A stretch of DNA of 64,000 bases from a virus. The translations under genes were made by a program, and so were the position numbers. The notes beneath the pieces were generated by a model. It made no database searches and had not been told where the DNA came from. It was given only the letters and a program-made list of their open reading frames with translations. The first letter of the stretch is position 1; every line of letters starts with the position of its first letter. The DNA lies in the IMG/VR virus record IMGVR_UViG_3300045974_000806, positions 46,272 through 110,271 of that record; one strand, given 5' to 3'. Of this stretch, positions 31,590 to 53,758 are shown in pieces.

Positions 31590-31645
31590 CGCGCACGCTG
31601 GAACGGAATGCGGTATGAAGGTGGGCAACCCCGTTGGAGACTTCC

Positions 31646-34096
31646 ATGACCGTGACCAAAGAAGAGAAGGCCGCCAAGCTGGCCAAGGCCATTGCAGCGG
31701 CCAAGGCGCATCAGGAAGAGCAGGCCAAGGCCCGCACGCTGGCCAAAGCCGCGCCGCCCCCGCATGCGCCCGCGGAAGGGCACACCATGCCGGAGGACCC
31801 GGGGAGCAAGAAGATTGAGCAGGACGAAACCAAGCTGGCCAACATCCAGGCCGGCGTGGATGAGAAGACCACCACGGAAGCGCGCAAGGAAGGCGACGAC
31901 GAACAGACGGAGAAGGGCTGCGGCCCGTCCGTGGTGAAGGCGCCCCTGTCCAAGGGCCTGGGGGACTGGCTGGCCAAGGCCGGCGAGGAAGGGGACGCCG
32001 GCCCATCATCCGGAGCGGATGACGCGGCGGAGGATGACAAGAAGGAGAAGGCCGCGGAGGACAAGGTGGCCCAGGAAACGGGCGACACCGACCCGGCCCA
32101 GGACGCCGCCAAGGAGAAGATGCAGGAACGCATGGACAAGGCCCGCCACGGCTTCACCGGCACCCCCAAGCTGACCACCGGAACCACGGAGCCGGCGGAG
32201 CCTGGGGAGCGCAAGGAGCCGTCCCTTCCGGAAGCACCGCCGCCCACCAAGGAAGCCCAGGTGCAGCGCGCCACGCCGCCCAGCAAGGTCAACAAGGTCA
32301 TGCCCAACGCCAAGCCCGTCCGCGGCAAGCCCGCGGTGGCCAGCAAGGCGCCACCGGAAGAGAACGGCCAGCAGGGCGCCATTGCCGCCCAGGACAAGCC
32401 GGCCCCCGTGCCCGCCCCGGTCAAGAAGTCCCTGGGCCTGGGCGAGTGGCTGTCCAAGGCGGTTCCGGACATGACCATCCTGCCCATCCCCATGGGGGAG
32501 GACACGGACGACGGCGGCGGGACGGCGGACGGTGACGTGGACGCGGTGACCCTCATGCAGCCGGCGTGGCAGGACAATGAGGCCCAGTGGGACATTGACC
32601 GGCTGGCCGTGGAAGCGGTGGACGAGGAGGAAGGCGTGCAGAAGGGCGTGTTCATTGGACCCAACGGTGGGAAGTGGGACGACGCGGCGCACAAGCGCCA
32701 CCACACAGAAGGGGGCGCACCTTCCGGAACCAGCACCCCCAACCACGTGCTGGGCAAGACCACCTCCGGCAAGGACATCCATCAGGACCACAAGCATCCG
32801 GACCACGCTGCGTTCACCGCCCATGACCATCTGGACGCGGTGAAGGTGCAAGAGTCCCAACGCTCCCAGGCCATCAACCTCGCGCGCAAAGCCCCGGCCG
32901 GCTCCGCCAAGGCCACCGCGCTGTATGGGGAAGCGAACCACGCCGCGGACGCAGCAACGCATCACGCTGACGCGGCGCGTGCGGCGCACCCTGGCACGTC
33001 CGCCGGCGCAAAGGCGCTGCATGACGCGGCCAACGTGGCCACCAAGACGGCGGACAAGAAGGGGACCGCGGACGCGCACTTCAAGGCCGCCCGCGCGCAT
33101 CAGGCAGCCGCGGACGCCCACGCGCCCCTGGACCACGCCGGCCGCAAGTGGCCCGGTGGGTATGAAACCGCGGGCAAGCACGCCGACCACGTGAAGCAGG
33201 CCGCGGAGCACCATGACAAGGGCACCACCATGCAGCGCGCCGCCTTGGCGGCCAACATCAAGAAGAGCGAGGGAGACATGGACGGACTTTCCGGATGGTT
33301 GAAGAAGGCAGGCATTCCTGGCGCCGCGGATGAGAGCGGCGGCGTGGCCCAGCATGATTGGAAAGAGGGCACGCCGGACATTGAGCCCGGGGAGCAGGCC
33401 AACGGGCATTGGATGGGTGGCGACGGAGAAAAGAGCCCGCCCCCGTCTGACGGCACGCACATCCGGAACCAGCGCCCAGGTGGCGGCAAGTCCGAAGGCA
33501 TCCCGGGGACGGAAGGCGCCCCCAGCGTGGACAGCGAGTCCCTGTCCGCGGATGACGGCCCGGTTGGCAAGATGCCCACGGGTGAGCCCGGCGTTGTGAC
33601 CGTGAAGGTCCCGGTTCCGGAAGCATCCATGGAGAAGGGCAACCTCCGGAACGTGGAGGATGAGGTGGCCGCGTCCCGCAATGCCGCGCTCCGGAAGGCG
33701 GCCATTGAGGGCAGCAAGTCCATCCGCGTGGGCCAGGACGGCGTGCGCTTCACGGCGCCGGCGGTTCCGGAAGCCCCCAAGCCGCTGCTCAAGGGCCTGG
33801 GCGCGGCCGTCTATTCGGACGGCGAGGACCAGCAGATTGCGGCCATGCTTGAGAAGGGCCAGGGCTACTACGGTGGCGGGTCCGCCCCCAGCATCCCCGC
33901 GGTGTCCATGCTCCGGAAGTCCGCCTGTGGGAACTGCGGCGCTCCGCAGCCGGCATGGCTCACGCGCTGCGGCAACTGCGGCGTTGACGCCGGTGGCGGG
34001 AACATGGTCAAGGCCGAAGCACCGCGGGGACGCCTCACGCTGCGGCAGGCCAATGTCCTGCGCCTGCCCAACGGCGCCACCATCCCCAAGGTCTGA
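31646..34096 (+). CDS. large low-complexity putative internal head protein (816 aa)
   Basis: RBS GGAG, ATG at 31646; one tag copy; many hydrophobic-x-K-[AGS] sites; C-terminal CGNC..CGNC. Confidence 0.7.
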   Translation: MTVTKEEKAAKLAKAIAAAKAHQEEQAKARTLAKAAPPPHAPAEGHTMPEDPGSKKIEQDETKLANIQAGVDEKTTTEARKEGDDEQTEKGCGPSVVKAPLSKGLGDWLAKAGEEGDAGPSSGADDAAEDDKKEKAAEDKVAQETGDTDPAQDAAKEKMQERMDKARHGFTGTPKLTTGTTEPAEPGERKEPSLPEAPPPTKEAQVQRATPPSKVNKVMPNAKPVRGKPAVASKAPPEENGQQGAIAAQDKPAPVPAPVKKSLGLGEWLSKAVPDMTILPIPMGEDTDDGGGTADGDVDAVTLMQPAWQDNEAQWDIDRLAVEAVDEEEGVQKGVFIGPNGGKWDDAAHKRHHTEGGAPSGTSTPNHVLGKTTSGKDIHQDHKHPDHAAFTAHDHLDAVKVQESQRSQAINLARKAPAGSAKATALYGEANHAADAATHHADAARAAHPGTSAGAKALHDAANVATKTADKKGTADAHFKAARAHQAAADAHAPLDHAGRKWPGGYETAGKHADHVKQAAEHHDKGTTMQRAALAANIKKSEGDMDGLSGWLKKAGIPGAADESGGVAQHDWKEGTPDIEPGEQANGHWMGGDGEKSPPPSDGTHIRNQRPGGGKSEGIPGTEGAPSVDSESLSADDGPVGKMPTGEPGVVTVKVPVPEASMEKGNLRNVEDEVAASRNAALRKAAIEGSKSIRVGQDGVRFTAPAVPEAPKPLLKGLGAAVYSDGEDQQIAAMLEKGQGYYGGGSAPSIPAVSMLRKSACGNCGAPQPAWLTRCGNCGVDAGGGNMVKAEAPRGRLTLRQANVLRLPNGATIPKV

Positions 34097-36524: not shown

Positions 36525-36755
36525 ATGAACGCCACCGCCACGCGCGCGCCGGACGGCTCCGCCCCCAAGTCCGGGGAATGGTGCCTCACGCCGGACAAGC
36601 AGCGCATTCAAGTTGTGTGTCCCATGTGCGTCCCGCCCTGCGTGGCTCACGTGGGCCTGGACCACGTGAGCCACATCAACATGGTGCTCAACGTGTGCGC
36701 CGGCTGTCAGCAGATCACCACCATCACCCTGGAAGGGTATCCGGTTCCGGAATGA
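36525..36755 (+). CDS. small Zn-ribbon protein
   Basis: CPMC...CAGC; RBS GAGG. Confidence 0.55.
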   Translation: MNATATRAPDGSAPKSGEWCLTPDKQRIQVVCPMCVPPCVAHVGLDHVSHINMVLNVCAGCQQITTITLEGYPVPE

Positions 36756-39700
36756 AGCTGCGCCTGGAAGCAGACCCCGCTGAACTCCAAACCCGTGGGG
36801 ACGTGCTGCTCACCAGCCTGTCCCACGCGGTGGAGCCGCACGCCCCGGCCCTGGCGGAGTCCTTGCGCAAGGCCATTCCGGAACGCCCGCCGGTGGTGTC
36901 AAAGCACCGCGCGCTGCGGGAACTCACCCGGGACGTCCAAGGGCTCTACGCGGACACGGTGGAGCGCATGCTGGCGGAGGTGGGGCAGGCCCTGGACCGC
37001 CGCGTGGAAGAGATGACCACCGGCAGCGGGGACGGCTCCCTCATGAAGGGCGGCCCGTTCATTGGTCCCCAGGGTGGCTTGTGGGCAGACCCCAAGCACA
37101 CGGTCCACTGGGACCCGGACGTGCATGGAAGCACGCACCACCCAGTGGCCTGGGCCGTGCCCATCCACGCCAAAATCTCCGGAGAAGAGAACCACGTTGC
37201 CATGTACCACGTGACCCACAAGGGCAACGGCAACGTCATGGTGAGCCGGCACAAGGACGGCCAGTACGGCCAGACCATGCCCGTGGAAAGCCTCAAGCAC
37301 TTCCGGAACGACCTGTCCGCGGTGGTGGACCTTCCGCCTTCCGGAAACCCGGACATTGACGCCGTGACGTCGGGCAAGGCCAAGTTCCTGGGCAAGGGCG
37401 ACGATGGAATGGCCTTCCACGTTGGGGACAAGGTGGTGAAGGTTTCCTCCACGGTCCCCTACCATCCGGACAACCCTGGCCACCGTTCCCCGGAAGGCGC
37501 CGCGGACATGCTCCGCGCCCAGGTGGACGTGGGCAACCATCTGGCGGACCTGGGCGTGCCGTGCATCCAGCGCAGTGAGTTCATCAAGCACGGGGACAAG
37601 GGCTTCCAGATCAAGCCGTGGGTGCGCATTCCGGAGAAGTTCACCCGGGCGCAGTTGGACAAGATCCAGGGTGCCGTCATTGCCATGCACGAGGCCGGCT
37701 ACGCCATGCATGACCAGATTCAGCCGGGCCTGGATGACAAGGGGGAGCCGGTCCTGTTTGACATCGGCAAAGCCGCGCCGCTCGACAAGGAGGGGACGCA
37801 GGGCCGCAAGTGGGCCATCGAAGATGACGTGAGCCACCTTCAGCGTCTCTACGAAAAGAGCGGCGTGGACTTCATCAACCGGAATACGCCGCAGGCCAAA
37901 CAAGACTTTGACAAGGTGGTGGCCATGTCCGTCCCGAAGAAGGACGGAAAGCGCGGTGGGGCCGGCCTCTACGCAGACCTGCTGACGATGCAAGGCAAAA
38001 AGCTGTTGCGCGCCACCGAGGGGACCGACGAGCACATTGGCCACGTGGTGAACTTTGTGGAAGCCCTGCGGGACGTGCGCGACAACCATGGTCCCATCCA
38101 CCCCAAGCTGCTGGACGAGGCCCGCAAGATCATTCCGGAAGACTGGCATGACATGCTGGACGGCCTGGACAAAGAGAAGGCGGCCAAGGCCGGCTACGCG
38201 GACGCGGATGACCTGCACAAGTCCGGGCCGTTCATCGGCCCCAACGGTGGGCTCTGGGCGGACGCAAAGCACACCATCCACTGGGACCCCGCGAAGCACG
38301 GCCCAGGCACGCCCGTCCGCTACGGCATGAGCCTCCGGCCGCCGGGCCTGGGCGCGCTGCCCTCCGGCGTGAAGTGGGACCTTGTGGCCCGCGGGAAGCA
38401 CCCCGCCAGTTCATTCCCTGGCCGGCCTGACCTGCCGGTGTCTGAGCACCACCTGCACGGGGAAGTGGAACTCCCAGGCCACCTTGACCCGGAGCGCGCC
38501 GCGGCCATGGACATGGTGCGCATCAGCCCCGCGCCCGTGGAGGCCCCGCCGGCGCGCGCGGCCAAGCCGGAGCAGTTGGGCCTGTTCAGCATGCCCGCCA
38601 AGCCCCCGGAGCCGGAGGACAAGCCGTCCAGCCGGCGCCTGCTGGCCATTGTGGACAATGACCCGGCCCTCACCCAGGAACAGAAGCTGGCGCCCACCGC
38701 GGAGGTGATGAAGGCCATCCTGGCCAAGCCGGCCAGCGACCCGGGCCAGTGGAAGCTGCCCGCCGGCGCGCGCTTTGACCCGTGGGAGCCCAAGGCCGTT
38801 CCGGAAGACGCGGAGTGGGAGCACCCGGACTTTGGTTCCGGAACCGGCGCCGCACCGTGGCAGCAAGGCGACGACTGGAAGCCGGACTTCCACAAGTATG
38901 ACGTCCTGCTGGTGAACAGCAGCGCCGGCAAGGACTCCCAGGCCATGCTGTCCCACGTGGTGGCCCAGGCAGACGCCGCGGGCTTCCCGCGTGAGAAGAT
39001 CGTGGTGGTGCATTGCGACCTGGGCCGCGTGGAGTGGGAAGGCACCAAGGAACTGGCCATTCAGCAGGCCCAGCACTACGGCCTGCGCGTGGAGGTGGTG
39101 CAGCGCACCCAGAACGACCTGCTTGAGCAGATTGAGGAGCGCCACGGGGACCTGACCCAGCGGCAAGAGGACGTGGGCAAGCTGGTCGCGGCCGGCATCC
39201 GGACCTGGGCGGACCTTGCGGCCATGGACCCGGCCACGGTGCAGAAGCACCTGGGCGAGGGGAAGGGCGCCTCCAAGTGGGAGGCCCAGCACCGGGCGGA
39301 AGAACTGGTGGACAAGGCCCAGAAGAAGCTGGAAGCGGCCCAGGAATGGGAGCCGCTGCACAACGCCCACCAAGCGGCCCTGGCCCAGCACGCGGAGGAC
39401 ATGACGGCCTATGAGGCCCGCGTGGCCGCCAACCCCAAGGACAAGAAGAACAAGCCCAAGGCCCCCAAGAAGCCCAAGGGCAAGCCGGTGTTCGCCGCGG
39501 ACCCGGTGGACTTTGGGAAGGCCATTGCGTGGCCCAGCAGTGATGCCCGGTTCTGCACGTCCGACCACAAGCGCGCGGAGGTGAAGAAACTCATGACGCG
39601 CCTTGCCGACGAGCACCGGGAGAAGAACGGCCCCAAGTCCAAGCCGCGCATCCTGAACGCCCTGGGCCTGCGCGCCCAGGAAAGCGACTCCCGGGAGGCC

Positions 39701-42514
39701 ATGCCGTCCTTTGAGCGCGAGGAAGAGACGGGCAAGCGCACCGTGGACCGCTGGTATCCCATCCACCGGTGGAAAGAGGACCGCGTGTGGAGCACCATCG
39801 CGGAGTCCGGCGTGCCGTTCCACAAGGCGTACAGCCTGGGCATGCGCCGGCTGTCCTGTGCCTTCTGCGTGTTTGCGCAGAAGGAAGACTTGATGATTGC
39901 CGCCAAGCACAACCCGGACCTGTTCCAGTCCTATCTGGACTTGGAGCAGCGCGTGGGGTCCGGCTTCACGGCGGACCTGTCCCTGGCGGACGTGGCGGAC
40001 GAGATCAAGCGCCGGCGCGCGGAGGGCATGGAACTCGACGAGACGGCCAAGTGGGTGAAGAAGGCCCTGGCCCAGTGGGAAGAGGTTCCGGAAGCACTCA
40101 TCAAGGCGGAGTTGGAGAAGGCGGAGCCCGACTTCCACGCCGCCATCCTGACCGCGGCGTTTGCCCGCCTGGGCGCAGACGCCCCGGTGGTGGGCGTCAC
40201 CATCGACTGGAAGACCACGGGCGCCTGCGTGCATCTCGACGACCACGCGGACAGCCACCACGTCCTGTGGATGCCGTATCCGGAAGCGTACAACGCGTCC
40301 ATGACCGTGGCGCAATTCGCCATGGACCACGGCCTGTCCCTGGAAGAGAACAACGCGCCCGCGCCCCTTCCGGAACTCGACGAGGACGCAATGGACAAGG
40401 CCGCGACGGATGCGGATGACCTGTCCAAGTCCGGCCCGTTCATTGGTCCCCAGGGTGGGCTCTGGGCAGACCCCAAGCACACCATCCACTGGGACCCGGC
40501 CCTCCACGGACCCGTGGCCGCCAACCGCAAGGTGGTGGTGCATCACGCCGGCGCGGAACTGCAAGGCAAGGCCAAGTTCGGCCACGGCTACCACGCGGAC
40601 CTGCATTACAAGGGGCAGAAGTACACCGTGAAGTTCAACCACGTGGACGGCAAGTTCTCCGGCGAGGTTCACCTCCCGGGCGGGCAGGTCCACCACGTGT
40701 CCAGCGCAAACCAAGCGGCGGACGCGGTGGTGCTCCACAGCGCCGGCCTGGACCACACGCTGAACAGCACGGAAGTCCGGAAGCGCGGGCTGGCCTATTC
40801 CGCGGACAGGTTGCTCAAGCCCACCAAGGACGTGCCGGCCGCCGCGGAGCCGGAGGCCACGCCGGAACCCGCCAAGGTGGAAGCGCCGGCGCACAAGCCG
40901 CTGCCCCTGCCCCCTGGCGTTCCGGAAACCACCATCCCGCCCCCGGGCACGCACCTGGGCACCATCCACCAAGGGGAACTGGACAACACCGTGGCGCCGG
41001 CACCTGCGCCCGCGGCGGAGCCGTCCCTGTTCGCCATGGACCCGCCCGCCCCACCGCCCCCGCCGCCCCCGCCGGCCAAGCCCGCGGACCCGCGGCGCAC
41101 CGCGCTGGGCGGAATCCTGGGCAAGAAGGCCCCGCTCTACATGGCCGCCACCAAGGGGACCATCCATGAGAAGCAGGCCGCCAAGTACGTGCTGGTGGAG
41201 GCGGAAAGCCTCATCCCCAGCCACCAGCCGCAGAAGGGCTTTGCGGAGCATCCGGCCTACCCCAAGGACGTCCAGACCCGCCCCTATGACCGCGACGAGG
41301 GGGACCAGATGAAGGTCCACGGCGCGGCCGGCGCCATGAACCCGGAGATCGTGTTCACGCCCAGCGTGGACGCCATGCAGGGTCCGCCTGTCATCACGGA
41401 GGACGGCGTGGTGTTGGGCGGCAACGGCCGGACCATGGCCCTGCAACTCCACTACGCGTCGAACGACCCCAAGGCCCAGGAAACCCGGGACTTCCTGGCG
41501 GAGAACGCCGGCACCTACGGCTTCACGGAGGCGGACGTCCGCTCCATGAAGAACCCGGTGGTGGTGCGGCAGGTGGAGACGCCCGACAAGAGCCAGCGCG
41601 CGCTGGCCCTGTTGGTCCACCGGTACAACGAGTCATCCAGCCAGGAACTGCAACCCCTGGCGGAGAGTGTGGCGGACGCCCGGCGCCTGGACGACACCAC
41701 CATGTCCGCCCTCACGGCCATTCCGGAGGACGGCACCCTCAAGGAGTTCCTGGGCTCCGCGGACTCCCGCCCGTTCGTTTCCGCGCTCCGGAACACGGGC
41801 ATCATCAACCAGCGCAACGCCACCAAGTACGTGGAGGGCGACGGGCTGTTGAACACCGCCGGCAAGAACCTTGCGGAGAGCATCCTGACCGCGGCCGTGC
41901 TTCCGGACGTCAAGCTGCTGGAAGACATTGACGGGCAGGTCCGGAACTCCCTCACGCGCGCGGCACCCTACGTCCTGGCCGCGGCGGCGGGGTCTGACCC
42001 GGACTGGGACCTGCGCCCGGCCCTCAAGGCAGCAGCGCGGGACCTCATCACCATCCGCTCCAAGCACCGGGCGGAGGTGGAGGCCGGCACCGTGCAGTCC
42101 GTGGCCAAGCGGGATGCAGAAGGCAAGCCGGTGAAGGTCAACGGCCAGACGGTCATGGTCAACAAGGAACCCACGGTGGACGAGTTCCTGAGCGGCGGTG
42201 CCCAGGGCGCGCTCATTCCGGAGTCCCACGCGGTGGACGGCGTGAAGCACGGGGAGGACGTGCTGCGCCTGCTGTTTGAACACGGGGACCGGCCCACCGT
42301 GCTGGCCCGGGTGATGTCCGGCTTCCTGGCGGAGGCCCGGAAGAACCCCAAGGGCCAGGGCGGCATGTTCGGGTCCCTGTCCGCCGGCGACCCCGGGGAC
42401 ACGCTGCGCAAGCTGGCCGCGGCGGTGGACAAGAGCCAGGACAGCCCGGAGGACCCGCGCCTGTGGCTGGACGCGGCCATTGACGCCCTGGAATCCGGAA
42501 TCCTTACGACCTGA
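36752..42514 (+). CDS. polyvalent protein (1920 aa): kinase-like, DarA-C-like, PAPS-reductase-like and ddrB-like ParB domains
   Basis: ATG at 36752 overlaps upstream TGA; FLGKGDDG..VVK..HD..LFDIG; RYGMSLRPPGLGALP; NSSAGKDSQAML..WPSSDARFCTSDHK..RLSCAFC; GPPVI..GGNGRTMAL; three tag copies. Confidence 0.8.
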   Translation: MKLRLEADPAELQTRGDVLLTSLSHAVEPHAPALAESLRKAIPERPPVVSKHRALRELTRDVQGLYADTVERMLAEVGQALDRRVEEMTTGSGDGSLMKGGPFIGPQGGLWADPKHTVHWDPDVHGSTHHPVAWAVPIHAKISGEENHVAMYHVTHKGNGNVMVSRHKDGQYGQTMPVESLKHFRNDLSAVVDLPPSGNPDIDAVTSGKAKFLGKGDDGMAFHVGDKVVKVSSTVPYHPDNPGHRSPEGAADMLRAQVDVGNHLADLGVPCIQRSEFIKHGDKGFQIKPWVRIPEKFTRAQLDKIQGAVIAMHEAGYAMHDQIQPGLDDKGEPVLFDIGKAAPLDKEGTQGRKWAIEDDVSHLQRLYEKSGVDFINRNTPQAKQDFDKVVAMSVPKKDGKRGGAGLYADLLTMQGKKLLRATEGTDEHIGHVVNFVEALRDVRDNHGPIHPKLLDEARKIIPEDWHDMLDGLDKEKAAKAGYADADDLHKSGPFIGPNGGLWADAKHTIHWDPAKHGPGTPVRYGMSLRPPGLGALPSGVKWDLVARGKHPASSFPGRPDLPVSEHHLHGEVELPGHLDPERAAAMDMVRISPAPVEAPPARAAKPEQLGLFSMPAKPPEPEDKPSSRRLLAIVDNDPALTQEQKLAPTAEVMKAILAKPASDPGQWKLPAGARFDPWEPKAVPEDAEWEHPDFGSGTGAAPWQQGDDWKPDFHKYDVLLVNSSAGKDSQAMLSHVVAQADAAGFPREKIVVVHCDLGRVEWEGTKELAIQQAQHYGLRVEVVQRTQNDLLEQIEERHGDLTQRQEDVGKLVAAGIRTWADLAAMDPATVQKHLGEGKGASKWEAQHRAEELVDKAQKKLEAAQEWEPLHNAHQAALAQHAEDMTAYEARVAANPKDKKNKPKAPKKPKGKPVFAADPVDFGKAIAWPSSDARFCTSDHKRAEVKKLMTRLADEHREKNGPKSKPRILNALGLRAQESDSREAMPSFEREEETGKRTVDRWYPIHRWKEDRVWSTIAESGVPFHKAYSLGMRRLSCAFCVFAQKEDLMIAAKHNPDLFQSYLDLEQRVGSGFTADLSLADVADEIKRRRAEGMELDETAKWVKKALAQWEEVPEALIKAELEKAEPDFHAAILTAAFARLGADAPVVGVTIDWKTTGACVHLDDHADSHHVLWMPYPEAYNASMTVAQFAMDHGLSLEENNAPAPLPELDEDAMDKAATDADDLSKSGPFIGPQGGLWADPKHTIHWDPALHGPVAANRKVVVHHAGAELQGKAKFGHGYHADLHYKGQKYTVKFNHVDGKFSGEVHLPGGQVHHVSSANQAADAVVLHSAGLDHTLNSTEVRKRGLAYSADRLLKPTKDVPAAAEPEATPEPAKVEAPAHKPLPLPPGVPETTIPPPGTHLGTIHQGELDNTVAPAPAPAAEPSLFAMDPPAPPPPPPPPAKPADPRRTALGGILGKKAPLYMAATKGTIHEKQAAKYVLVEAESLIPSHQPQKGFAEHPAYPKDVQTRPYDRDEGDQMKVHGAAGAMNPEIVFTPSVDAMQGPPVITEDGVVLGGNGRTMALQLHYASNDPKAQETRDFLAENAGTYGFTEADVRSMKNPVVVRQVETPDKSQRALALLVHRYNESSSQELQPLAESVADARRLDDTTMSALTAIPEDGTLKEFLGSADSRPFVSALRNTGIINQRNATKYVEGDGLLNTAGKNLAESILTAAVLPDVKLLEDIDGQVRNSLTRAAPYVLAAAAGSDPDWDLRPALKAAARDLITIRSKHRAEVEAGTVQSVAKRDAEGKPVKVNGQTVMVNKEPTVDEFLSGGAQGALIPESHAVDGVKHGEDVLRLLFEHGDRPTVLARVMSGFLAEARKNPKGQGGMFGSLSAGDPGDTLRKLAAAVDKSQDSPEDPRLWLDAAIDALESGILTT

Positions 42515-44692: not shown

Positions 44693-47600
44693 ATGCCCTT
44701 GCTCACCGCGCGCCTCATCCAAGAGATCAAAGAGATCATCCGGAAGCACCACACGGCGTTCGTGGCCAACGCGTTTGGCAAGGACGTGCTCCCCCCGGAA
44801 GCGGTGGAGAAGCTGCGCGCGGCCGGCCTCATCAGCCAGACACAGGGCAGCAGCCTGGACGACGCCTACCTCTACGGGCAGGTGATGGCCCAGGTGGAGA
44901 AGCCGGAGGTGGCCGAGTGGTCCGCCGCCCAGGTCCGGTCCTACGCGGCCCAGAACCCCGTCCCCCTCACCCAGGTGGAGCGTGAAGCGGTGAAGACGGC
45001 CCGGCTCACCGGCGCGGAGTATTGCCAGGGCCTGGGCAACGTCATTGAGAAGCAGACCGGCCAGTTGCTGATCGAGGCGGACCACGCGCTGCGGGAAGAC
45101 CTGCAGGGGAAGATTGCGGACGCCACTGCGGTGAACATTGCCGCGCGCGGCACGGTGAAGGCGCTCAAGACGGACCTGGGCTGGGCCACGCAGGACTGGG
45201 CCAGGAACTTGGACCGCATTGCCATCACGGAGAAGCAGAACGCGATGCAGCAGGGTGTGGCGGATGGCATCCGGAAGCGCGTGGGGGAGGAAGCCCGCGT
45301 GTCCATCCGGTGCATGCCGGACGCCTGTGGCGCGTGCCGGGCGTTCAGCATTGGCCCGGACGGCGCCCCGCGCATCTACCGCCTGAGCCAGTTGGGGCCT
45401 CCGGGCTCCAACGTCCACCGCAAGCAGAACGCGTGGGTGGCGTGCGTGGGCGCGGTGCATCCGCACTGCCATCCCGCAGGGACCGTGGTTCAGACGCGGC
45501 GGGGGCGCATCCCGATTGAGACGGTGGTGCCGGGGGACATGGTGCTGACGCACCGGGGCCGGTGGATGCCTGTGAGCCACACGTGGGCGTCCCGGTATTC
45601 CGGAATCATGTTGCGCGTGAGGACGGAAAGCGCGGTGGTTGACGTGACTCCGGAGCATCCGTTGTTCCGCTCAAACGGAACCACCGCTTCCGCGCAAAAC
45701 CTCCAACAGGGTGACAACCTTTTGGACCTCCGCTTGGACGGAGAACCCGCGCCGTCGGTCCAAGGTGATGCGGACCACGGACCATCCGCGCCGCTTGAGC
45801 GCGCGCATCTTGCGCGCATCCTGTTTGGCCTTTCTCCCGCTGGCGTGCCAGTTGCCGCCGTCAACTTCCACGGCGAGCTTTTCCTGTGGGAAGGCAATGT
45901 CCACCAGAAACGTGCCCACAATGAAGCCTGGGAGCCCAGCCATTCCGACGGCGCAAAGCGCCTCATGGATGAGGCGTTCACCGGGACTTTTGAGTTGACC
46001 GCTTTGGGCTTGAAGCACCTTGAGGATGTGCCCACGGGAGTTCCGTTTGCCACGTCGGGCTGCATGCGCAGCGTTGGCGCGGGCACTACGTTCCTCCGGG
46101 CTGGACCGGGCGTTGCGGAGGCGTTGGGCTTCCCCCATCCCGCGGACGACGTGTCCAGCACGCTCCAAGCGGAGCACCACGGTCCCACGGGCCACCCCCA
46201 GCCGCCGGGCAATCTCCTGTACCGGGAGCAGTTGGTTGAGGTGCAAGTCTACAAGGACCGCTTCATCAATTTCGCGCCGGTACACCATGAGCCCTCCGTG
46301 GCTTTCAGTGCCCCGACGGTGCGGCAAGCTGCGTCCATTGTCAATGTCAGTTCAAACCAGTTTGATGGGTTGGTGTTCAACCTGACCGTTCCGGAAGATC
46401 ACAGTTACACGGCCAACGGGCTGGCCTCGCACAACTGCCAGTGCCAGTTGGTCCGCTTGCCCGTGGGCTGGGGATACAACGCGGAAGGGGAGATGGAGCC
46501 CGGCGGCCGGTTCGGCGTGGAGGTTCCGGAAGACGAGGAAGAGGCGGAGAAGGCGTTCCGGATGGAAGTGGAGCACCGGGAGGCCATGCAGAAGGGCGGC
46601 ACCCTGGACTTCCAGGGCATGCCCATCCGGATCGAACAGGACGCGGGGGAGGTGCGCCACTGGCGGGACCGTCACGGCGAGTCCGGCAGCACCACCATGC
46701 AACACGCCTACGGGGAGATTGTGGGCACCAAGGGCGCCGACGGTGACCCGGTGGACGTGTTCCTGGGCATGAACCCCAACGCGTCCCACGTCTACGTTGT
46801 CCACCAGCGGAAGAAGCGTGCGGACGGGACGTTTGGTGGCTTTGACGAGGACAAGGCGTTCCTGGGCTTCTCTTCTCCGGAAGAGGCCAAGGCCGCCTAC
46901 CTGTTGCACTACGACAACCCGGAGTTCTTTGGCGGGATGTCCGCGGTGGGCCTGGAAGACTTCCGCGCGCGCGTAGGCGCCCCCGGCCCCCTGGTGGGGG
47001 AACCGGTCCACACTCCGGAACTGACCTTCACCGTGGCGCTTCCGGAATCCGCGGCGGACATGGCCAAGGCCGCCGTCCGCCCGCCGGCCGTTCCGGACAT
47101 GACGTTCACCCTGGGCAAGGCGTTTGGCCAAGCCGCGGCCGGTCACAAGTACATCCGGCGCACGTACACCAAGGGCCATTGGGTCTATGAGTACGCGGAG
47201 CAGCACGGCGGGCACGTGAGTAGCCACGCCACGGACCCGGACAAGGTGATGCTCAAAGTGGAGCCCCACCACGCCAACGCCCTGGCGGCGCTGGCGGAGA
47301 TGCACGGCATCCATCCGGAACTGGTGCATGGGAGCACGCACGTCATGCTGCCCCTCACCCACGCCCAGGCTGATTCCATCCACCACGGTGAGACGGGCAC
47401 GCCCATCCCGGCCGCCATGCTGCCCACGCCGGCCCTGGCCACCGTGCTGCCCTTCCCCACGCCCGCTCAGGTGGCCCCCGTGGCTCCGGCACCCCTGGCC
47501 CCGACCGTGGCGCCTGCGCCGGCTCAGGTGGCTCCGCGGGCACGCCCGGCCCCGGCCCAGCAGATGGGCCTCTTTGACACCATGCCCGCGGCCCAGGCCG

Positions 47601-50600
47601 TCACGCAGTCCCCGGTGACCCATCCGGCCCCCACGCCCCTGGCGGTGGCCGCCATTCCGGAGAAGAAGTGGGGCGTGGTGGGTTCCACCGCGTTCCGGAA
47701 TTGGTTCGGGGACTGGACGGTGGGCCAAGGGTCCAAGGTGGTGAACGCGGACAACACGCCGGCGGAGCAGCACGGAGCCAAGCCGGCAACCATGTTCCAC
47801 GGCACCGCGGTGGGCGGGTTCACGGAGTTCCGGAAGGACAAGGACAAGGGCACCAACATCTTTGGGCACGGCTTCTACTTCACGGCGGACAAGGGCATTG
47901 CCAAGTCCTACACGGAGAAGGATGCCAATGAGGCCAAGGCCGCCGCCACGGGTTTCTTGGACAAGGAAGGCGAGCCCATCACGCACCTGACCAAGAAGCA
48001 GGCCGCGGAACTGGCGGAGAAGGCCGCGGGCAACGCCAACCCCAACTGGGACTACAACATCCTGCACGCGGTGAAGGCCGCCGCGGAGCCGGACGGCCGC
48101 GTCAATGTGGCCACCCTGTTGAAGGAGTTCTGGAACCCCACCGGAGTGGAGACGGACGGCGGCTACAAGCAGCCCAAGCGTGAAGTGATGCCCATGGGCG
48201 GCGTGCGCTTGGTGGGCGGCATCCAGGGCCTCTTTGGGAAGAACCGCGCCGGTGAATACCACGTCAAGCCGGTCATTCCGGAGTCCCAGGTCTTTGAGGT
48301 GTACCTCAACATCCGGAACCCGGTGGACATGGACAAGGCCATGACCCGCGCGGACTTTGCGGAGTACGCGGCGTTCACGCACCGGCGTGCGTTGGAGCGT
48401 CTGAACAAGGAGTTGGAGCAGGACAAGGCCCGCGTGGAGACGAAGCGCGGGGAGATGGCGTCCGCCAAGGTGAAGCTGGCCGCGCTGGCCCCCACGCCCC
48501 CGCAGCCTACGGAGATGCGGGTTCCGGAAGGCAAGCGGAAGGCCGTCCCCATGCCGGTGGAGGAGTGGACCGGTGAGATGCGCCGGGCGATTGATGACCC
48601 CACGCATGGACAGCACGCAATGGCCCAGGCGTTTGCTTCCTGGGAGCACGCAAAGAACGAACGGGAGTTCCTGTCCCAGGCCGCGGCCGGGGAGGGCTAT
48701 GACGGGTTCAACAACGCGGTGGCGCATTCCGTCCGCACCCAGGCCCGCATTGATGCCGTCCGGCGTGAGGTTCCCGGGGAGTTCCTGCACGGCGTGCAGA
48801 TGGATGACGTGGCCCCGCGTGAGCACCGCCTCTCAGACCAAAGTGAGAGCGCCGCCAGCTATGATGACTTTGTGGCGGTGAAGCGCAGCATCAAGGGGGA
48901 CCGCACCAAGCCGGAGATGGTCACCTACGGCGGCACGTCCCGCGCCCGGGCCGGCATCCTCTACGTGGGGGAGCAGAAGCCGGGCGCCATCACCTGGGGT
49001 GAGATGCATTGGTTGATGTCCAACGGGCATGAGGCGTCCAGCCCGCGCGCGGACTTCGACGAGTGGGCGCGCGCCACGGGAAAGGATGGCGTTCACCACA
49101 CCGGCGGATGGAACATTGGCACCCACGCGCATGACGTGTGGATTGCGTTTGAACCCAACCAGATCAAGTCCTCCACGGCCAACACCACGTTTGACCCGGC
49201 CTCCAATGACATGGAGAAGGCCGGCCCTTACGTTGGCCCGCACGGCGGGCTTTGGGCGGACCCCAAGCACACCATCCATTGGTCCGCGGTCCCGCACTGG
49301 GCGCAGAAGATGGCCGCCAGCCACGCCGCGGAGATCAAGCCACACCCCACGGACCCGCACAGCCTGGAAGTGGCCGTGCCGGTGAAGCACGCTCCGGAAC
49401 TGGGCTACCAGCAGGGCCAGCACGCGGTGCCCCACAACGTGAAGCTGTCCGCGGACCTCAAGCAGGCCACGTTGCAGGTCCCCGCCCTCCCGGTGGCGCC
49501 GGACGTTCAGGCGCTTGGACGTCCAGACGTCCAGACGCCCGCCCCGGCTCCCACGCCCCCGCCTGCCCCTGTGGCACCGCCCCCGCCGCCCGCGCCCCTG
49601 GCCGGCGTGGCGCCCACGGGCAAGCCCAAGCGCAAGGGCATCACCGTGGCCCAGTTGGATATGTTTGCGCCCGCTCCGGCTGCGACGGCTCCCGTCGCAC
49701 CGGTGGTGCAGGCGCCGGCAACCCCTGCTACGGTCCCACCCGCACCTGGGCTGGACCGTCCGCCGGCGAACCCCCCCTCACCGGCGCCGGACCCGGCCCA
49801 GGCGCACCAACCCCCCAAAGAGTCTGAACCCGGATGGGACCGCATGCCGGACCCGGTTCCGGAAGCGGCACCCGCGGAGCCCATGTGGGAACCGGACACG
49901 CGCAAGCCGACGCTCACCCAGGCCGGCCTGGACACCATGGTGCGCACCGCGGTGGGCCTGGACGCTCCCGCGGCCCGCGCGCTGATGGTTTTCAGCACGT
50001 CCGACGACCCGCACCTGTCCGTGGTGGCCACCCGCATCTCCATGGGCACCAAGGGCATGACCACCTCTTTTGGGACGGACTACGACAAGCCGGAGGCCCT
50101 GGGCGCCCTGGTGGCGCAAGGGCTGGTGGAGCCGGCCCATGAGAAGCGCGGCGCCACGGACTACCAGCAGTGGCGCCTCACGCCCGCCGGCAAGGCCGCC
50201 CGCGCCGCGGTGGAAGCGGAACGCCAGCGCATGACCGCCGCCCAGGTGGCGGCCACCACGCCCGTGCGCCCGCCCCAGGCTCCGGAAGGTCCCGGGGACC
50301 GCCGCTTGCCCAAGGCCCCCGCCGGCCCGGTGGCGGCGCCGGACATCACGCGCATGACGGTGGACCCCAAGGCCAAAGGCCCGCCCGGCATGACCCCGTT
50401 TGGGATTGCCGCGGCGGACGCCCTGGCGGTGAAGCAGGGACAGCCCCCGCCCAGCGCCGGATTCGACCCCCAGGCCGCGTTCGCGGAAGCGGAGCGGATG
50501 CGCACGGCCCCTGCCACGGTTCCGGAACCCGCCCCGGCCCCCGTGAAGCCGCAACCTGGGCAGCCCGGCGCGCACGTGAAGGTGACCGTGAACCAAGGCC

Positions 50601-53600
50601 AGCGCCCGGCCAAGATCCTGGCCCGCCTGGGGGACAACGTGCTGCTGGAATACACCATGCCGGCCGGCACCACGGGCCTGCTGGTGATGGATGCCGCTCC
50701 GGACGGGAGCCTGAAGCCCAGCAAGGCGGACGCGCCGTCCTACCGGACCTGCCCCAAGAAGTGGCTCCAAGCCATCCAGGCCGCCGGCCAGGAATGGGAC
50801 GGCACCGCCCAGCGCGGGAACGTGTCCTTCACGGACGCCCTGGACCGGGCCGGCCTCACCCCGAAGAAGGGTCCGGATGGTTGGGACCGCATGCCGGAGG
50901 GGCGCATCACCAGCCAGTCCCAGCTTGACCCCAACAAGCGGTATTCCGGATGGACCATGATCGAGGCGGGCACCAAGGCCGCTCCGGAAACCCGGTGGGT
51001 CATCCAGCGCACCATGCCGGGGACCGCTTTCCTGGGAGAGGGTGGCAACGCGTTTCTGGTGCGGGACACCCCCATGGAACACGGCTACGTGGCCCTGTTT
51101 CCGGAAGGGATGGACCCCAACAAGCCGCGCGCCGCGGCCCAGGCGCCCGCCCAGGCCGCGCCGGCCCCGGCCCCCACCCCACCGCCGCCCCCGGCCCCGG
51201 AACCGCCGCCTGAGCCCACCCAGGCCGTTCCGGAAGCACCCCCGGAGGTGCCCGCGGCCATGGCCCCCTCACCCACCCGGACGGAGGCGGAGAACAAGCA
51301 GCGCGCCATGGCGGTGGGCGCGCACATCGCAGGCAGCAAAAAGGACCAAGCGGACCTCCGCAACAAGGTGGCCGCTGGCCGCCTGGATGAAGTGAGTTAC
51401 GCGGACGCGGCCAAGTTCCTGAAGAAGGAAAGCCTGATGCCCGTGATGGACGAGGCGCACTTTGAAAGCCTGGGCGCCACGCCCGGAGCCGCGCACATGG
51501 GCCTTGCCTTGGCGGCCCTGGTGGGCGCCAAGCCCCCGGACAGTGACGCCGGCCGGAAAGCGTACATTGAGGGCGTGCGGCTGGTGGCCGGTGGCATTGC
51601 CAAGCTGCGCACCGTGGCGGACGCGGACGGCTTCCGCCAGGAAGTTCTGGACATGGCGAACAACGCGGGCCGGCACGTGCGGCCCATGACCGCGGAGGAA
51701 CAGGCGCTGCTGGCGTCATTCCACCACCCGGACAGGCCGTATGAGGCCCGCCTCCGGATGAACCGCTACCTGATCGAACAGGCGGCCCCCGGGGAGGCAA
51801 TCCGGAGCATGCGCCAGAAGGACGACGGCCCCCTGGAAGTCTATTGGCTGGACCGGAGCGAGATGGAATCCGTCCATGACGTCTTCCGCGCCCTGGGACC
51901 CCGGTTCATTGCGGGCCTGGACCTGCCCATTGGCACCCGCGGTGAGTTCGGGAGCCGCAAGCGCGCCATGTTTGACCGGGACACCCAGTACGGGAAGGCC
52001 AAGGCCGTGGCCCTCAAGGCGGACGCCGTGGGTTGGGATGCCTGGAAAGCCGCCCAGGCCGCGGTGTCCAAGGACCCTGGCGCGGGCAAGTCCAAGGAGA
52101 AGAGCGCCATCCGGACGCGCTGGGAGAAGAGCCCCAGCGGCACCGTGACGATTGTGGGCGCCAAGAAGATGGTGGACGTGGGCGACCCGGAACGCTTGAA
52201 GGCCGTCCTGGGCGCGGCGGGCATCCAGCGCGGTGAGTCCCTGACCGGTGGCCAAGGTGCGTCTGACTTTGCCCACCACGTGAAGCACATGGAGGTGGCC
52301 GCCTATGACTTGGCGGACATCCTGGGCGTGGAGCCAAAGACACTGAGCCTGAGCGGCCGGCTGGCCGTGGCCATTGCGGCCCGCGGCAGCGGGAAGGCCC
52401 TGGCACACTTTGAAGCCAACGCGCGGGATGCGGACGGCAACCCCATCAAGGCCATCAACATCACCCGGCACGCCGGCGCGGGAAGCGTGGCCCATGAATG
52501 GGGGCACTTCATGGACAACGTGATGGCGGAGGCCCACGGCGGCGCCAACACGTCATCCACCGGCGCCTACGCCAGCGAGGGTGCCGGCCTTTCCGGAATG
52601 GGCTCGGAAGTGGCCACCGCCTTCCGCGGTGTGCGTGAGGCGCTCAACAAGCCGGACTGGGACAGCCGGATGAAGAACGCCCGGGAGCGCACCTCCAAGA
52701 TGGCGGAACTGAAGGGGCGTTCGGAGGACATCAACCGGGAGTTGGCGGCGCTCTACAAGACGGCGCCCGCTAAGGACGGCGTTCCGGATGCGGCGCGCGA
52801 GAAGCGCAAGCAGCGCCTGCTGTCAGAGCATGATGCGGTGCGGGAAGAGTTCGACGTGGTGAAGCGGATTGACCCGGACAAGTCCGACTACGCCAACCAC
52901 GCGTCCGTGCTGGATGACCACAAGCAGGGCAAATACTTCACGCGCGGTCGTGAGATGTTCTCGCGCGCGTTTGAAGCCTGGGTGCAGGACAAGCTGGAAG
53001 CGGACCAAGGCGGGCAGCGCCGGAACACCTATCTGGTGGACAGCACCAAGGGTGTGCAGTTCACCAACCACCACATGCCGGACGGTTCCTCCGCGCAGCC
53101 GTACCCCCAGGGTGAGGAGCGCACGCGCATTGGCGCGGCGTTTGAGAACCTGTTCGCCGCCCTCCGGAACACGGGCGCCCTGGCCAAGGCCATGCGCGCC
53201 ATGCAGTTCACCATCATGCCGGACGCCACGCTCCGGAAGAACGGCCTGTTGAATGACCCCGCGTCCCAAGCTGCTGGTGTTTCGTCTGCCGTGGGCGGCG
53301 TTGTGGTGGAGTCTGACCGCGGCCCTGGGAGGGGTCCCGGCGCTTCCATGCAAACGGCTTCAACCCCAGGTTCCCATGACCGTCCCATCGGGAGCCCCAC
53401 CGACGTAGCCGGCGTGCGGGAGTTCCTGCTCACCGGACAGCCGCGGACGTCCATCATCCGGCGTGACCCGCACGTCTATGAGTTCGACGCGGACAACATT
53501 GACTGGGTGCGGCCCATCAATCTGGAAGAGGGCGTGATGGCCACCAGCCATGACAGCCTGCAAGCCATTGAGCGGGACAACGTGGAACGCCAGACGCTGC

Positions 53601-53758
53601 AAACCACCCTGGTGCCACGCAACACGGTGAACCCGGGCTGGGCCTGGGATTCCGGAAAGTATCCGGACGCCAATGAGCAGGACCCGGTGCAGACCGGGAA
53701 GCCGGAGCCCACCGCGCGGCCCCAGGCCCCAAAGAAGAAGCCCACCAGCAGGTATTGA
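44693..53758 (+). CDS. giant polyvalent protein (3021 aa): Mu gpF-like head-morphogenesis domain with intein, InPase-like, ART-like and LPD1-like domains
   Basis: RIAITE..HPH[intein]CQC; YGEIVGTKGADGDPVDVF..DEDK; FRNWFG..FHGT..GFYFT..YLNIRNP..FEPNQIKS; AHEWGHFMD..EMFSRAFE..PYPQGEER. Confidence 0.82.
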   Translation: MPLLTARLIQEIKEIIRKHHTAFVANAFGKDVLPPEAVEKLRAAGLISQTQGSSLDDAYLYGQVMAQVEKPEVAEWSAAQVRSYAAQNPVPLTQVEREAVKTARLTGAEYCQGLGNVIEKQTGQLLIEADHALREDLQGKIADATAVNIAARGTVKALKTDLGWATQDWARNLDRIAITEKQNAMQQGVADGIRKRVGEEARVSIRCMPDACGACRAFSIGPDGAPRIYRLSQLGPPGSNVHRKQNAWVACVGAVHPHCHPAGTVVQTRRGRIPIETVVPGDMVLTHRGRWMPVSHTWASRYSGIMLRVRTESAVVDVTPEHPLFRSNGTTASAQNLQQGDNLLDLRLDGEPAPSVQGDADHGPSAPLERAHLARILFGLSPAGVPVAAVNFHGELFLWEGNVHQKRAHNEAWEPSHSDGAKRLMDEAFTGTFELTALGLKHLEDVPTGVPFATSGCMRSVGAGTTFLRAGPGVAEALGFPHPADDVSSTLQAEHHGPTGHPQPPGNLLYREQLVEVQVYKDRFINFAPVHHEPSVAFSAPTVRQAASIVNVSSNQFDGLVFNLTVPEDHSYTANGLASHNCQCQLVRLPVGWGYNAEGEMEPGGRFGVEVPEDEEEAEKAFRMEVEHREAMQKGGTLDFQGMPIRIEQDAGEVRHWRDRHGESGSTTMQHAYGEIVGTKGADGDPVDVFLGMNPNASHVYVVHQRKKRADGTFGGFDEDKAFLGFSSPEEAKAAYLLHYDNPEFFGGMSAVGLEDFRARVGAPGPLVGEPVHTPELTFTVALPESAADMAKAAVRPPAVPDMTFTLGKAFGQAAAGHKYIRRTYTKGHWVYEYAEQHGGHVSSHATDPDKVMLKVEPHHANALAALAEMHGIHPELVHGSTHVMLPLTHAQADSIHHGETGTPIPAAMLPTPALATVLPFPTPAQVAPVAPAPLAPTVAPAPAQVAPRARPAPAQQMGLFDTMPAAQAVTQSPVTHPAPTPLAVAAIPEKKWGVVGSTAFRNWFGDWTVGQGSKVVNADNTPAEQHGAKPATMFHGTAVGGFTEFRKDKDKGTNIFGHGFYFTADKGIAKSYTEKDANEAKAAATGFLDKEGEPITHLTKKQAAELAEKAAGNANPNWDYNILHAVKAAAEPDGRVNVATLLKEFWNPTGVETDGGYKQPKREVMPMGGVRLVGGIQGLFGKNRAGEYHVKPVIPESQVFEVYLNIRNPVDMDKAMTRADFAEYAAFTHRRALERLNKELEQDKARVETKRGEMASAKVKLAALAPTPPQPTEMRVPEGKRKAVPMPVEEWTGEMRRAIDDPTHGQHAMAQAFASWEHAKNEREFLSQAAAGEGYDGFNNAVAHSVRTQARIDAVRREVPGEFLHGVQMDDVAPREHRLSDQSESAASYDDFVAVKRSIKGDRTKPEMVTYGGTSRARAGILYVGEQKPGAITWGEMHWLMSNGHEASSPRADFDEWARATGKDGVHHTGGWNIGTHAHDVWIAFEPNQIKSSTANTTFDPASNDMEKAGPYVGPHGGLWADPKHTIHWSAVPHWAQKMAASHAAEIKPHPTDPHSLEVAVPVKHAPELGYQQGQHAVPHNVKLSADLKQATLQVPALPVAPDVQALGRPDVQTPAPAPTPPPAPVAPPPPPAPLAGVAPTGKPKRKGITVAQLDMFAPAPAATAPVAPVVQAPATPATVPPAPGLDRPPANPPSPAPDPAQAHQPPKESEPGWDRMPDPVPEAAPAEPMWEPDTRKPTLTQAGLDTMVRTAVGLDAPAARALMVFSTSDDPHLSVVATRISMGTKGMTTSFGTDYDKPEALGALVAQGLVEPAHEKRGATDYQQWRLTPAGKAARAAVEAERQRMTAAQVAATTPVRPPQAPEGPGDRRLPKAPAGPVAAPDITRMTVDPKAKGPPGMTPFGIAAADALAVKQGQPPPSAGFDPQAAFAEAERMRTAPATVPEPAPAPVKPQPGQPGAHVKVTVNQGQRPAKILARLGDNVLLEYTMPAGTTGLLVMDAAPDGSLKPSKADAPSYRTCPKKWLQAIQAAGQEWDGTAQRGNVSFTDALDRAGLTPKKGPDGWDRMPEGRITSQSQLDPNKRYSGWTMIEAGTKAAPETRWVIQRTMPGTAFLGEGGNAFLVRDTPMEHGYVALFPEGMDPNKPRAAAQAPAQAAPAPAPTPPPPPAPEPPPEPTQAVPEAPPEVPAAMAPSPTRTEAENKQRAMAVGAHIAGSKKDQADLRNKVAAGRLDEVSYADAAKFLKKESLMPVMDEAHFESLGATPGAAHMGLALAALVGAKPPDSDAGRKAYIEGVRLVAGGIAKLRTVADADGFRQEVLDMANNAGRHVRPMTAEEQALLASFHHPDRPYEARLRMNRYLIEQAAPGEAIRSMRQKDDGPLEVYWLDRSEMESVHDVFRALGPRFIAGLDLPIGTRGEFGSRKRAMFDRDTQYGKAKAVALKADAVGWDAWKAAQAAVSKDPGAGKSKEKSAIRTRWEKSPSGTVTIVGAKKMVDVGDPERLKAVLGAAGIQRGESLTGGQGASDFAHHVKHMEVAAYDLADILGVEPKTLSLSGRLAVAIAARGSGKALAHFEANARDADGNPIKAINITRHAGAGSVAHEWGHFMDNVMAEAHGGANTSSTGAYASEGAGLSGMGSEVATAFRGVREALNKPDWDSRMKNARERTSKMAELKGRSEDINRELAALYKTAPAKDGVPDAAREKRKQRLLSEHDAVREEFDVVKRIDPDKSDYANHASVLDDHKQGKYFTRGREMFSRAFEAWVQDKLEADQGGQRRNTYLVDSTKGVQFTNHHMPDGSSAQPYPQGEERTRIGAAFENLFAALRNTGALAKAMRAMQFTIMPDATLRKNGLLNDPASQAAGVSSAVGGVVVESDRGPGRGPGASMQTASTPGSHDRPIGSPTDVAGVREFLLTGQPRTSIIRRDPHVYEFDADNIDWVRPINLEEGVMATSHDSLQAIERDNVERQTLQTTLVPRNTVNPGWAWDSGKYPDANEQDPVQTGKPEPTARPQAPKKKPTSRY
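45671..46288 (-). CDS. HTH plus DUF559/Vsr-like endonuclease, antisense and fully nested in the intein
   Basis: VQEIARRLGVARGTVVLRL HTH; SPGE..FLVDIAF..KLAVEVDGGNWH..QDARK..LKRRGWSVVRI; RBS GGAGG 4 nt before ATG. Confidence 0.85.
   Translation of the reverse strand: MVYRREIDEAVLVDLHLNQLLPVQEIARRLGVARGTVVLRLERAGHVVRGMGEAQRLRNARSSPEERSARANAAHAARRGKRNSRGHILKVLQAQSGQLKSPGERLIHEALCAVGMAGLPGFIVGTFLVDIAFPQEKLAVEVDGGNWHASGRKAKQDARKMRALKRRGWSVVRITLDRRRGFSVQAEVQKVVTLLEVLRGSGGSV
46316..46344 (-). promoter_or_regulatory. promoter for the antisense endonuclease gene
   Basis: minus strand TTGACA (46344-46339)-N17-CACCGT (46321-46316). Confidence 0.65.

Follow-up and report, generated by a model that had tools for sequence, protein, structure and literature searches.

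The window analysed here is a stretch of 64,000 nucleotides from an uncultured phage (IMG/VR record IMGVR_UViG_3300045974_000806, positions 46,272 to 110,271), that is, the right-hand 64 kb of a 110,271-bp record rated complete. It has a guanine plus cytosine (GC) content of 67% and its credible genes are all found on the plus strand, apart from the one described in this work. This gene (45671–46288, − strand, starting at ATG 46288 and ending with TGA 45671) encodes 205 amino acids (aa) comprising a helix-turn-helix (HTH) and a Vsr-like/EDxHD nuclease, and it lies inside an intein (45467–46435, + strand) that interrupts an open reading frame (ORF) of 3021 aa (44693–53758, + strand). The original prediction had seen here an intein whose homing-type nuclease is encoded by a separate gene on the opposite strand, while the sense peptide remains passive, and this core reading is borne out by nuclease family matches, by the conservation of the antisense frame and by the predicted disorder of the sense interior. 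Long minus-strand ORFs are common in the window, and all the others have the composition of shadow frames (GC of ~0.45–0.5 at the first and ~0.7 at the second codon position, against 0.65 and 0.45 in real genes), which is consistent with this being the only credible minus-strand gene, as had been proposed.

The intein is 323 aa long and can be read as VHPH/CHPAGT...TPEHPL...VFNLTV...ANGLASHN/CQC, where slashes indicate the splice junctions and the cysteine at +1 (codon 46436–46438, + strand) is the first residue of the extein motif CQC. It contains the features of class 1 inteins, namely an N-terminal nucleophile (Cys1), the TxxH of block B (T61-x-x-H64), the His-Asn pair closing blocks F and G (VFNLTV...ANGLASHN) and Cys at +1, with C1, T61, H64, H322, N323 and C+1 invariant among 11 aligned inteins (the window plus 10 relatives). 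Profile matches were found to Pfam Hint_2 (31.5 bits, cut-off 28.4), Intein_splicing (E 1.7e-7) and NCBIfam intein_Cterm (TIGR01443, 27.4 bits, cut-off 15.6), so that the canonical intein originally proposed stands on both motifs and profiles. Its catalytic residues are intact and the phage would need an uninterrupted head or polyvalent protein, from which we infer that this class 1 intein is capable of splicing. A family profile search matched no LAGLIDADG or HNH family on the sense frame of the intein, and no second intein was found across the whole phage record.

An AlphaFold2 model of the intein, built on the alignment with ten relatives, shows two beta-rich parts (residues 1–96 and 280–323) with a pLDDT (the predicted score of the local distance difference test) of ~90. 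The N-terminal Hint subdomain (residues 1–96; 45467–45754, + strand) has block values of 89–95 over residues 1–90, and the C-terminal one (residues 280–323, containing blocks F and G and matching TIGR01443; 46304–46435, + strand) ranges from 79 to 94. Between them, residues 97–279 (183 aa; 45755–46303, + strand), which are the mirror of the nuclease gene, fall below 50 at every position, and the sense interior is therefore predicted to be a disordered linker, in good agreement with the passive peptide, free of LAGLIDADG or HNH motifs, that had been suggested.

The antisense ORF matches Pfam DUF559 (28.8 bits, cut-off 20.6) and MTES_1575 (E 7e-9). Its N-terminal region (residues ~5–45; 46154–46276, − strand) gives weak matches to Pfam HTH families (E 0.002–0.02) and to PDB profiles of DeoR/TyrR-type HTH (E 0.002–0.003), and AlphaFold2 predicts there a three-helix HTH over residues 9–43 (helices 9–18, 23–30, and 34–43), which would represent a separate N-terminal DNA-binding module lacking NUMOD motifs. 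The nuclease core (residues ~100–178; 45755–45991, − strand) contains the invariant D130, E141, D143, W147, H148, D157, and K160. When a profile of 11 homologues was compared with the PDB (hmmsearch), it matched the catalytic domain of I-Bth0305I (3r3p, E 3e-6) and a DUF559 structure (3hrl, E 1e-4), and the I-Bth0305I gene of phage 0305phi8-36 was reached by tblastn with the window nuclease itself (E 1e-3). The AlphaFold2 model of the nuclease (pLDDT 88) had its best Foldseek matches in known nuclease structures: 3r3p with probability 1.00 and a template modelling (TM) score, on the target, of 0.72, Vsr (1vsr) with 0.99, and 3hrl with 0.97.

The stretch E141-V-D-G-G-N-W147-H148 (EVDGGNWH) aligns with Vsr F62–H69. 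Based on the alignment with 3r3p and the published motif, the positions equivalent to Vsr D51, F62 (Glu here), W68, H69 and probably D97 (the last by alignment only) are D130, E141, W147, H148, and D157, all invariant in the 11 sequences; their equivalents are named as catalytic or intercalating in the Vsr-like family (PMC2677866, PMC3239194). The HTH plus DUF559/Vsr-like nuclease proposed for this strand is thus matched both by nuclease families and by the solved structure of I-Bth0305I, and the minus-strand ORF is an intact gene for a predicted homing-type nuclease. Among 5.8 billion predicted proteins, none of 1674 candidates was a homologue at E <= 0.001, which probably reflects antisense ORFs that have not been called rather than their absence.

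Nucleotide-level searches recovered many relatives, and both further inteins with antisense nucleases and an intein-free allele were found among them. A tblastn of the window nuclease against cultured phages gave 67 records, mostly of Jerseyvirus and Kagunavirus, at ~30% identity over 82–97% of its length. In the three annotations inspected (SGPC, PK2, and Snoke) the match lies within the head morphogenesis gene, on the opposite strand. In Salmonella phage SGPC (Jerseyvirus) the gene comprises a Phage_Mu_F domain followed by an intein at AHPN/C...AHN/CRS, which is confirmed by Pfam and contains the antisense nuclease in the same triplet register as in the window; among the enterobacterial phages it is in SGPC only that the antisense frame was confirmed to be open. 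Gordonia phage Sampson has the same intein at the same site (HN/CRC), with an antisense ORF, again in the shared triplet register, 28.6% identical to the window nuclease over 96% of its length. A further 11 loci (L numbers below) were found in IMG/VR at 33–46% identity to the nuclease, and in 10 of them (GC 34–64%) an intein confirmed by Pfam encloses it completely, with the nuclease antisense, the triplet register unchanged and the site again HP[HN]/C...HN/CxC. Four of these (L005, L006, L010, and L011) share the order of the window (N-terminal domain, intein, and InPase), and five loci have the intein in head-morphogenesis proteins of the ordinary kind (for L004, with a phrog_1657 match at E 2e-35). 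One relative (L015) represents an intein-free allele, with VHPN-CQC uninterrupted and an N-extein 48% identical to that of the window, as close as any intein-bearing allele. The Hint parts of the window are 47% identical to those of L004 and L007, versus 41–43% to loci with far more similar exteins.

The record of Escherichia phage Snoke (MK931441, L018; CPT_Snoke_004) has annotations for the intein and for the spliced capsid morphogenesis protein, and none for the antisense nuclease gene. The eleventh IMG/VR locus (L014) has a free-standing nuclease homologue (L014:3875–4528, + strand; MTES_1575 E 1e-13), convergent with a portal gene (L014:4509–6962, − strand) whose 3′ end it overlaps by 20 nucleotides (nt). 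The C-terminal tail of this portal reads HPQGTI where the family has HPxCxC, and the nuclease may be a free-standing ancestor, or an escapee, beside the usual target site.

We compared selection on the two strands over 193 gap-free codon columns; pairs of sequences are not independent and the ratios are therefore descriptive, not P values. Mean amino-acid identity among relatives is 38.6% in the nuclease frame versus 24.7% in the sense frame, and base differences at nuclease codon positions 1, 2, and 3 amount to 0.51, 0.40, and 0.64. Codon differences silent for the nuclease and changing the sense frame outnumber the reverse class 2224 to 692 over all pairs (3.2:1) and 49 to 12 in the closest pair. 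Opposite the disordered linker (nuclease residues 21–180) the ratio of nuclease-silent to sense-silent differences is 4–6:1, and it falls to ~1:1 (132:146 and 11:20) over nuclease residues 181–205, opposite the folded Hint residues 70–94. So ~25 codons (45674–45748, both strands), in which the C-terminal helix of the nuclease faces the Hint domain and both models have high pLDDT, seem to be constrained on both strands. Purifying selection on the nuclease frame is clear from these sequence comparisons, and conservation follows the antisense and not the sense frame, the pattern on which the original prediction depended. The minus-strand ORF of the window might still be a chance open frame or a dead pseudogene, opposite a sense interior forming a real and novel intein domain, given that long antisense ORFs are found everywhere at 67% GC and that chance alone would leave such a frame open about half of the time. 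Against this stand a DUF559 match above the curated cut-off, the PDB profile match, a confident Vsr-like fold, the presence of every family-invariant residue and a sense interior that is both disordered and less conserved, which make it highly improbable.

The codons of both strands occupy identical base triplets in the window, because the distance from 45467 to 46286 is divisible by three. In this register the stop codons of the sense frame mirror the nuclease codons TTA, CTA, and TCA, so that each sense stop faces a Leu or Ser codon that has synonyms and could be avoided by a synonymous swap; the reverse also holds. Both frames would then be open because the two genes share the same triplets, and neither protein sequence would be constrained by the need of the other for an open frame. 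With its own codon usage, the window nuclease has a probability of ~0.5 of avoiding TTA, CTA, and TCA, and likewise in the reverse direction. Among the low-GC relatives, both frames would remain open by chance with a probability of 1e-5 to 1e-7 at each locus. The significance of the arrangement rests on the homology of the nuclease and on the relatives, not on the open frames of the window.

Regarding expression of the antisense gene, ATG 46288 falls on the start-codon column in eight of the 10 relatives (seven ATG and one GTG), and it is preceded by a Shine-Dalgarno-like GGAGGG (46292–46297, − strand), with GGAGG four bases before the ATG. Further upstream there is a promoter-like element (46316–46344, − strand) made up of TTGACA (46344–46339), a 17-nt spacer and CACCGT (46321–46316), with 8/12 matches to the consensus, a value reached by 3% of background windows. 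The original prediction had described a GGAGG ribosome-binding site (RBS) with a perfect promoter; the RBS, TTGACA and the spacer are indeed present, whereas "perfect" fits only the −35 element. A sigma-70 consensus scan of 45400–46700 called no promoter, and the two plus-strand terminator-like hairpins found there do not exceed chance expectation (1.1). The C-terminal Hint region also contains this putative promoter, while the RBS lies just 5′ of that region, inside the sense linker.

Of 11 loci, nine have −35/17-nt/−10 elements upstream of the nuclease, several of them strong (10–11 of 12 matches, reached by <=1% of background windows). Between these strong elements and the start codon there are 6–9 nt, as in leaderless genes, whereas the window has a 27-nt leader with an RBS. 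It seems plausible from these sequences that the minus strand is transcribed independently across the family, and the window gene may be too. An antisense transcript might also regulate the 3021-aa gene, as was suggested at the outset. Within 40 nt upstream of the nuclease start, five relatives (L004, L007, L008, L009, and L013) share a TACAAT or TATTAT −10 ending precisely 9 nt short of the start codon and separated by 17 nt from a TTGACA-like −35, and this leaderless layout is formed from the I-V-N/S codons of the intein. Part of the upstream element of L004 and L007, AATAGCGCTATT, is palindromic and could be a candidate operator for the HTH.

Taken together, we assign a probability of roughly 0.8 to a composite selfish element, consisting of a class 1 intein whose insertion loop holds a homing-endonuclease gene in reverse orientation, the whole placed at the conserved HPx/CxC of the Mu F-like region of a virion polyvalent protein. 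The host gene would be translated straight through the element, the ~183 residues opposite the nuclease gene forming a disordered linker around which the two Hint halves would fold, and protein splicing would then remove the whole element, joining HPH to CQC. The nuclease would be made separately off the minus strand, from start signals within the intein near its 3′ end (an RBS here and leaderless promoter layouts in most relatives). During co-infection it would cut intein-free alleles near the HPx-CxC codons, and recombinational repair would copy the intein and the nuclease gene into the cut allele.

Several observations weigh against this reading. In a window of 67% GC a stop-free sense frame is unremarkable by itself, with a probability of ~0.5 for both frames being open, and GC at the third codon position in the overlap (0.71 versus 0.73) fails to separate the two frames. 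The −10 element of the window, CACCGT, is weak, matching TATAAT at only two of six positions, and TTGACA corresponds, on the sense strand, to conserved I-V-N codons of the intein, so that coding needs may account for the −35. A single intein-free relative was recovered, a distant one, so that recent homing stays conjectural; the mismatch between intein and extein identities could stem from different constraint instead of transfer. Finally, the antisense ORF of SGPC (L001:2920–3729, + strand) and >60 Jerseyvirus/Kagunavirus records have EVFGGGWA versus EVDGGNWH in the family, with the equivalents of the Asp and of the general-base His lost, so not every member is an active nuclease. The enterobacterial-phage version may be an inactive nuclease retained for DNA binding, or may use another mechanism.

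Part of this evidence could also fit an immobile relic, inherited vertically, whose nuclease gene is intact and no longer homes (for example if all targets are occupied or resistant), either having not yet decayed or serving a secondary role. Of the polyvalent-type relatives a single one lacks the intein, vertical inheritance seems to hold for most VSR-like cases according to the preprint discussed below (bioRxiv 10.1101/2025.01.02.630785, in the passages drawn on here), and the Jerseyvirus copies remain open despite having lost the catalytic Asp and His equivalents. However, purifying selection on the nuclease frame and catalytic positions invariant in 11 loci at 33–46% identity are hard to square with a functionless gene; an empty-site allele exists (L015), and intein and extein divergences are out of step. 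For these reasons we consider a relic unlikely.

The mobile composite element must also be set against the view of the antisense protein as mainly a DNA-binding regulator, or as a nuclease directed against the host or a competitor (superinfection exclusion or takeover), with the intein as a mere safe harbor. Its closest characterized relative is a homing endonuclease of the same two-part design, and very different phages have the gene in this same intein, inserted at an identical site, which is the hallmark of parts that travel as a single unit. We therefore find such a role quite improbable, even if the N-terminal HTH, its retention in the Jerseyvirus versions that have lost the catalytic residues, and the position of the free-standing L014 homologue adjoining the portal gene rather than inside it would all suit it.

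The layout itself has already been described. Gosselin, Arsenault and Gogarten (bioRxiv 10.1101/2025.01.02.630785) reported, for minor capsid proteins of actinophages, full inteins that hold an anti-sense endonuclease of the LAGLIDADG or of the VSR-like type; they described unstructured sense interiors and an HHpred link to 3R3P, and proposed an origin via invasion by a free-standing endonuclease gene; Gordonia phage Sampson belongs to their data set. The window is a further example, sharing with the actinophage VSR-like cases a complete intein, an unstructured sense interior, an antisense HTH/VSR-like nuclease and (in the window by motif and gene order) a head-morphogenesis or minor capsid gene as host. 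Unlike them, it has as host a gene for a 3021-aa polyvalent protein, and the 110-kb pond phage that carries it is uncultured and lacks close relatives in culture. The scope of the preprint is PhagesDB only, and the passages drawn on here make no mention of enterobacterial (Jerseyvirus/Kagunavirus) or metagenomic members; the shared-triplet register and the two-sided selection over the Hint overlap are also absent from them. Inteins with an anti-sense LAGLIDADG endonuclease go back to Gorbalenya 1998 and Gogarten et al. 2002 (as cited in that preprint); they resemble the window in having the endonuclease on the strand opposite the intein, whereas the nuclease family and the hosts are others (Synechocystis dnaX, a Chloroflexus SpoVR-like protein and actinophage minor capsid).

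Among characterized nucleases, the best profile and structural match is I-Bth0305I (Taylor et al. 2011, PMC3239194; 3r3p), which also combines an N-terminal DNA-binding module with a C-terminal Vsr-like domain and has the same Asp, Glu, Trp-His, and Asp positions conserved. The gene of I-Bth0305I lies in a group I intron of recA and the enzyme binds DNA by means of NUMOD motifs, whereas the window protein has an HTH, is encoded antisense inside an intein and has a cleavage activity predicted from sequence. "Fractured genes", in which a free-standing Vsr-like or GIY-YIG endonuclease gene sits between the halves of a split intein (Dassa et al. 2009, PMC2677866), are similar in that, mostly in phages, the point of the intein where an endonuclease would be inserted holds a Vsr-like endonuclease gene equipped with control elements of its own. 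In fractured genes, both host gene and intein are split in two ORFs and trans-splicing takes place (PMC2677866), while the intein of the window is contiguous because a reverse-oriented gene leaves the sense frame open. As in canonical bifunctional inteins (PI-SceI), there is a Hint domain whose blocks B and F flank an endonuclease insertion, and empty alleles are the presumed targets of homing; unlike in PI-SceI, the endonuclease is a separate protein from the other strand and not a domain of the intein polypeptide.

A more ambitious reading, which we offer tentatively and think more doubtful than probable, is that the reverse orientation in exact same-triplet register is a selected and ancient design rather than an accident of insertion, in a lineage spanning phages of enterobacteria, actinobacteria and uncultured high-GC hosts, polyvalent proteins included, and so reaching well past the actinophages of the preprint. 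If so, any nuclease sequence could coexist with a stop-free sense frame, the start signals of the nuclease would be built from intein codons near the 3′ end of the element, and two-sided selection over ~25 codons would be tolerated. An early-acting nuclease would be uncoupled from a late structural gene, and the antisense transcript might in addition damp the expression of the host gene.

What is new here is that the host gene encodes a polyvalent protein and that the phage lineage is uncultured. The quantitative features (a register conserved across GC 34–67%, frame-specific selection that switches at the Hint overlap, and the promoter layouts) were not found in the preprint passages drawn on. 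At this locus ~600 bases code for one protein on each strand, a clean case from nature with a measurable pattern of selection that switches where both fold, and the locus places a putatively mobile intein inside a polyvalent protein. Both gene callers and intein-annotated phage records miss antisense nuclease genes, so that counts of homing endonucleases in phage head genes come out too low. The locus also supports the acquisition of endonucleases by inteins via invasion of free-standing genes, the free-standing homologue of L014 adjoining a portal gene.

The 3021-aa host protein contains an N-terminal Mu F-like region (by motif only), the intein, InPase (Pfam E 6e-33), ART-PolyVal (E 8e-14), and LPD1 (E 7e-19), and is thus a polyvalent protein in the sense of Iyer et al. 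2017, a very large phage protein with several effector domains. It had originally been called a gpF gene. This is partly supported by the CxxC...HPx/CxC motif and the gene order, both common to the window and the Mu F-type hosts, and by homologous inteins in true Mu F proteins; the host proteins of Jerseyvirus and Sampson match PF04233 (Phage_Mu_F), with the intein directly after profile position 107 of 112, and one polyvalent-type relative matches it marginally (E 0.024). However, the N-extein of the window was recognized as Mu F neither by Pfam nor by PHROGs, and hhalign against Mu F-type relatives gave a probability of 0.1.

No cultured phage is closely related to this one, whose major head protein is 36% identical to that of SPO1-like phages and whose terminase is 31% identical to that of Bacteroides phages, and blastn of the intein region against cultured phages gave no match. 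A pond metagenome, probably the origin of the record, was the sole sequencing run containing the window stretch; its contigs over the stretch amounted to one identical contig, with no intein-less joint and no variants seen. The head module runs in the order terminase, two unknown large proteins, portal, 1978-aa protein, helicase-like protein, 3021-aa ORF, protease/scaffold, and major head protein (terminase, portal, protease and major head protein being assigned by PHROGs). Between terminase and portal, 27840–34096 (+ strand) contains two large ORFs (1249 and 820 aa), with no PHROG match at E <= 1e-5. A second giant ORF (36578–42514, + strand), of 1978 aa, is located after the portal and before the polyvalent protein, and contains a PAPS-reductase-like region (phrog_424, E 3e-30) together with matches to unknown large phage proteins.

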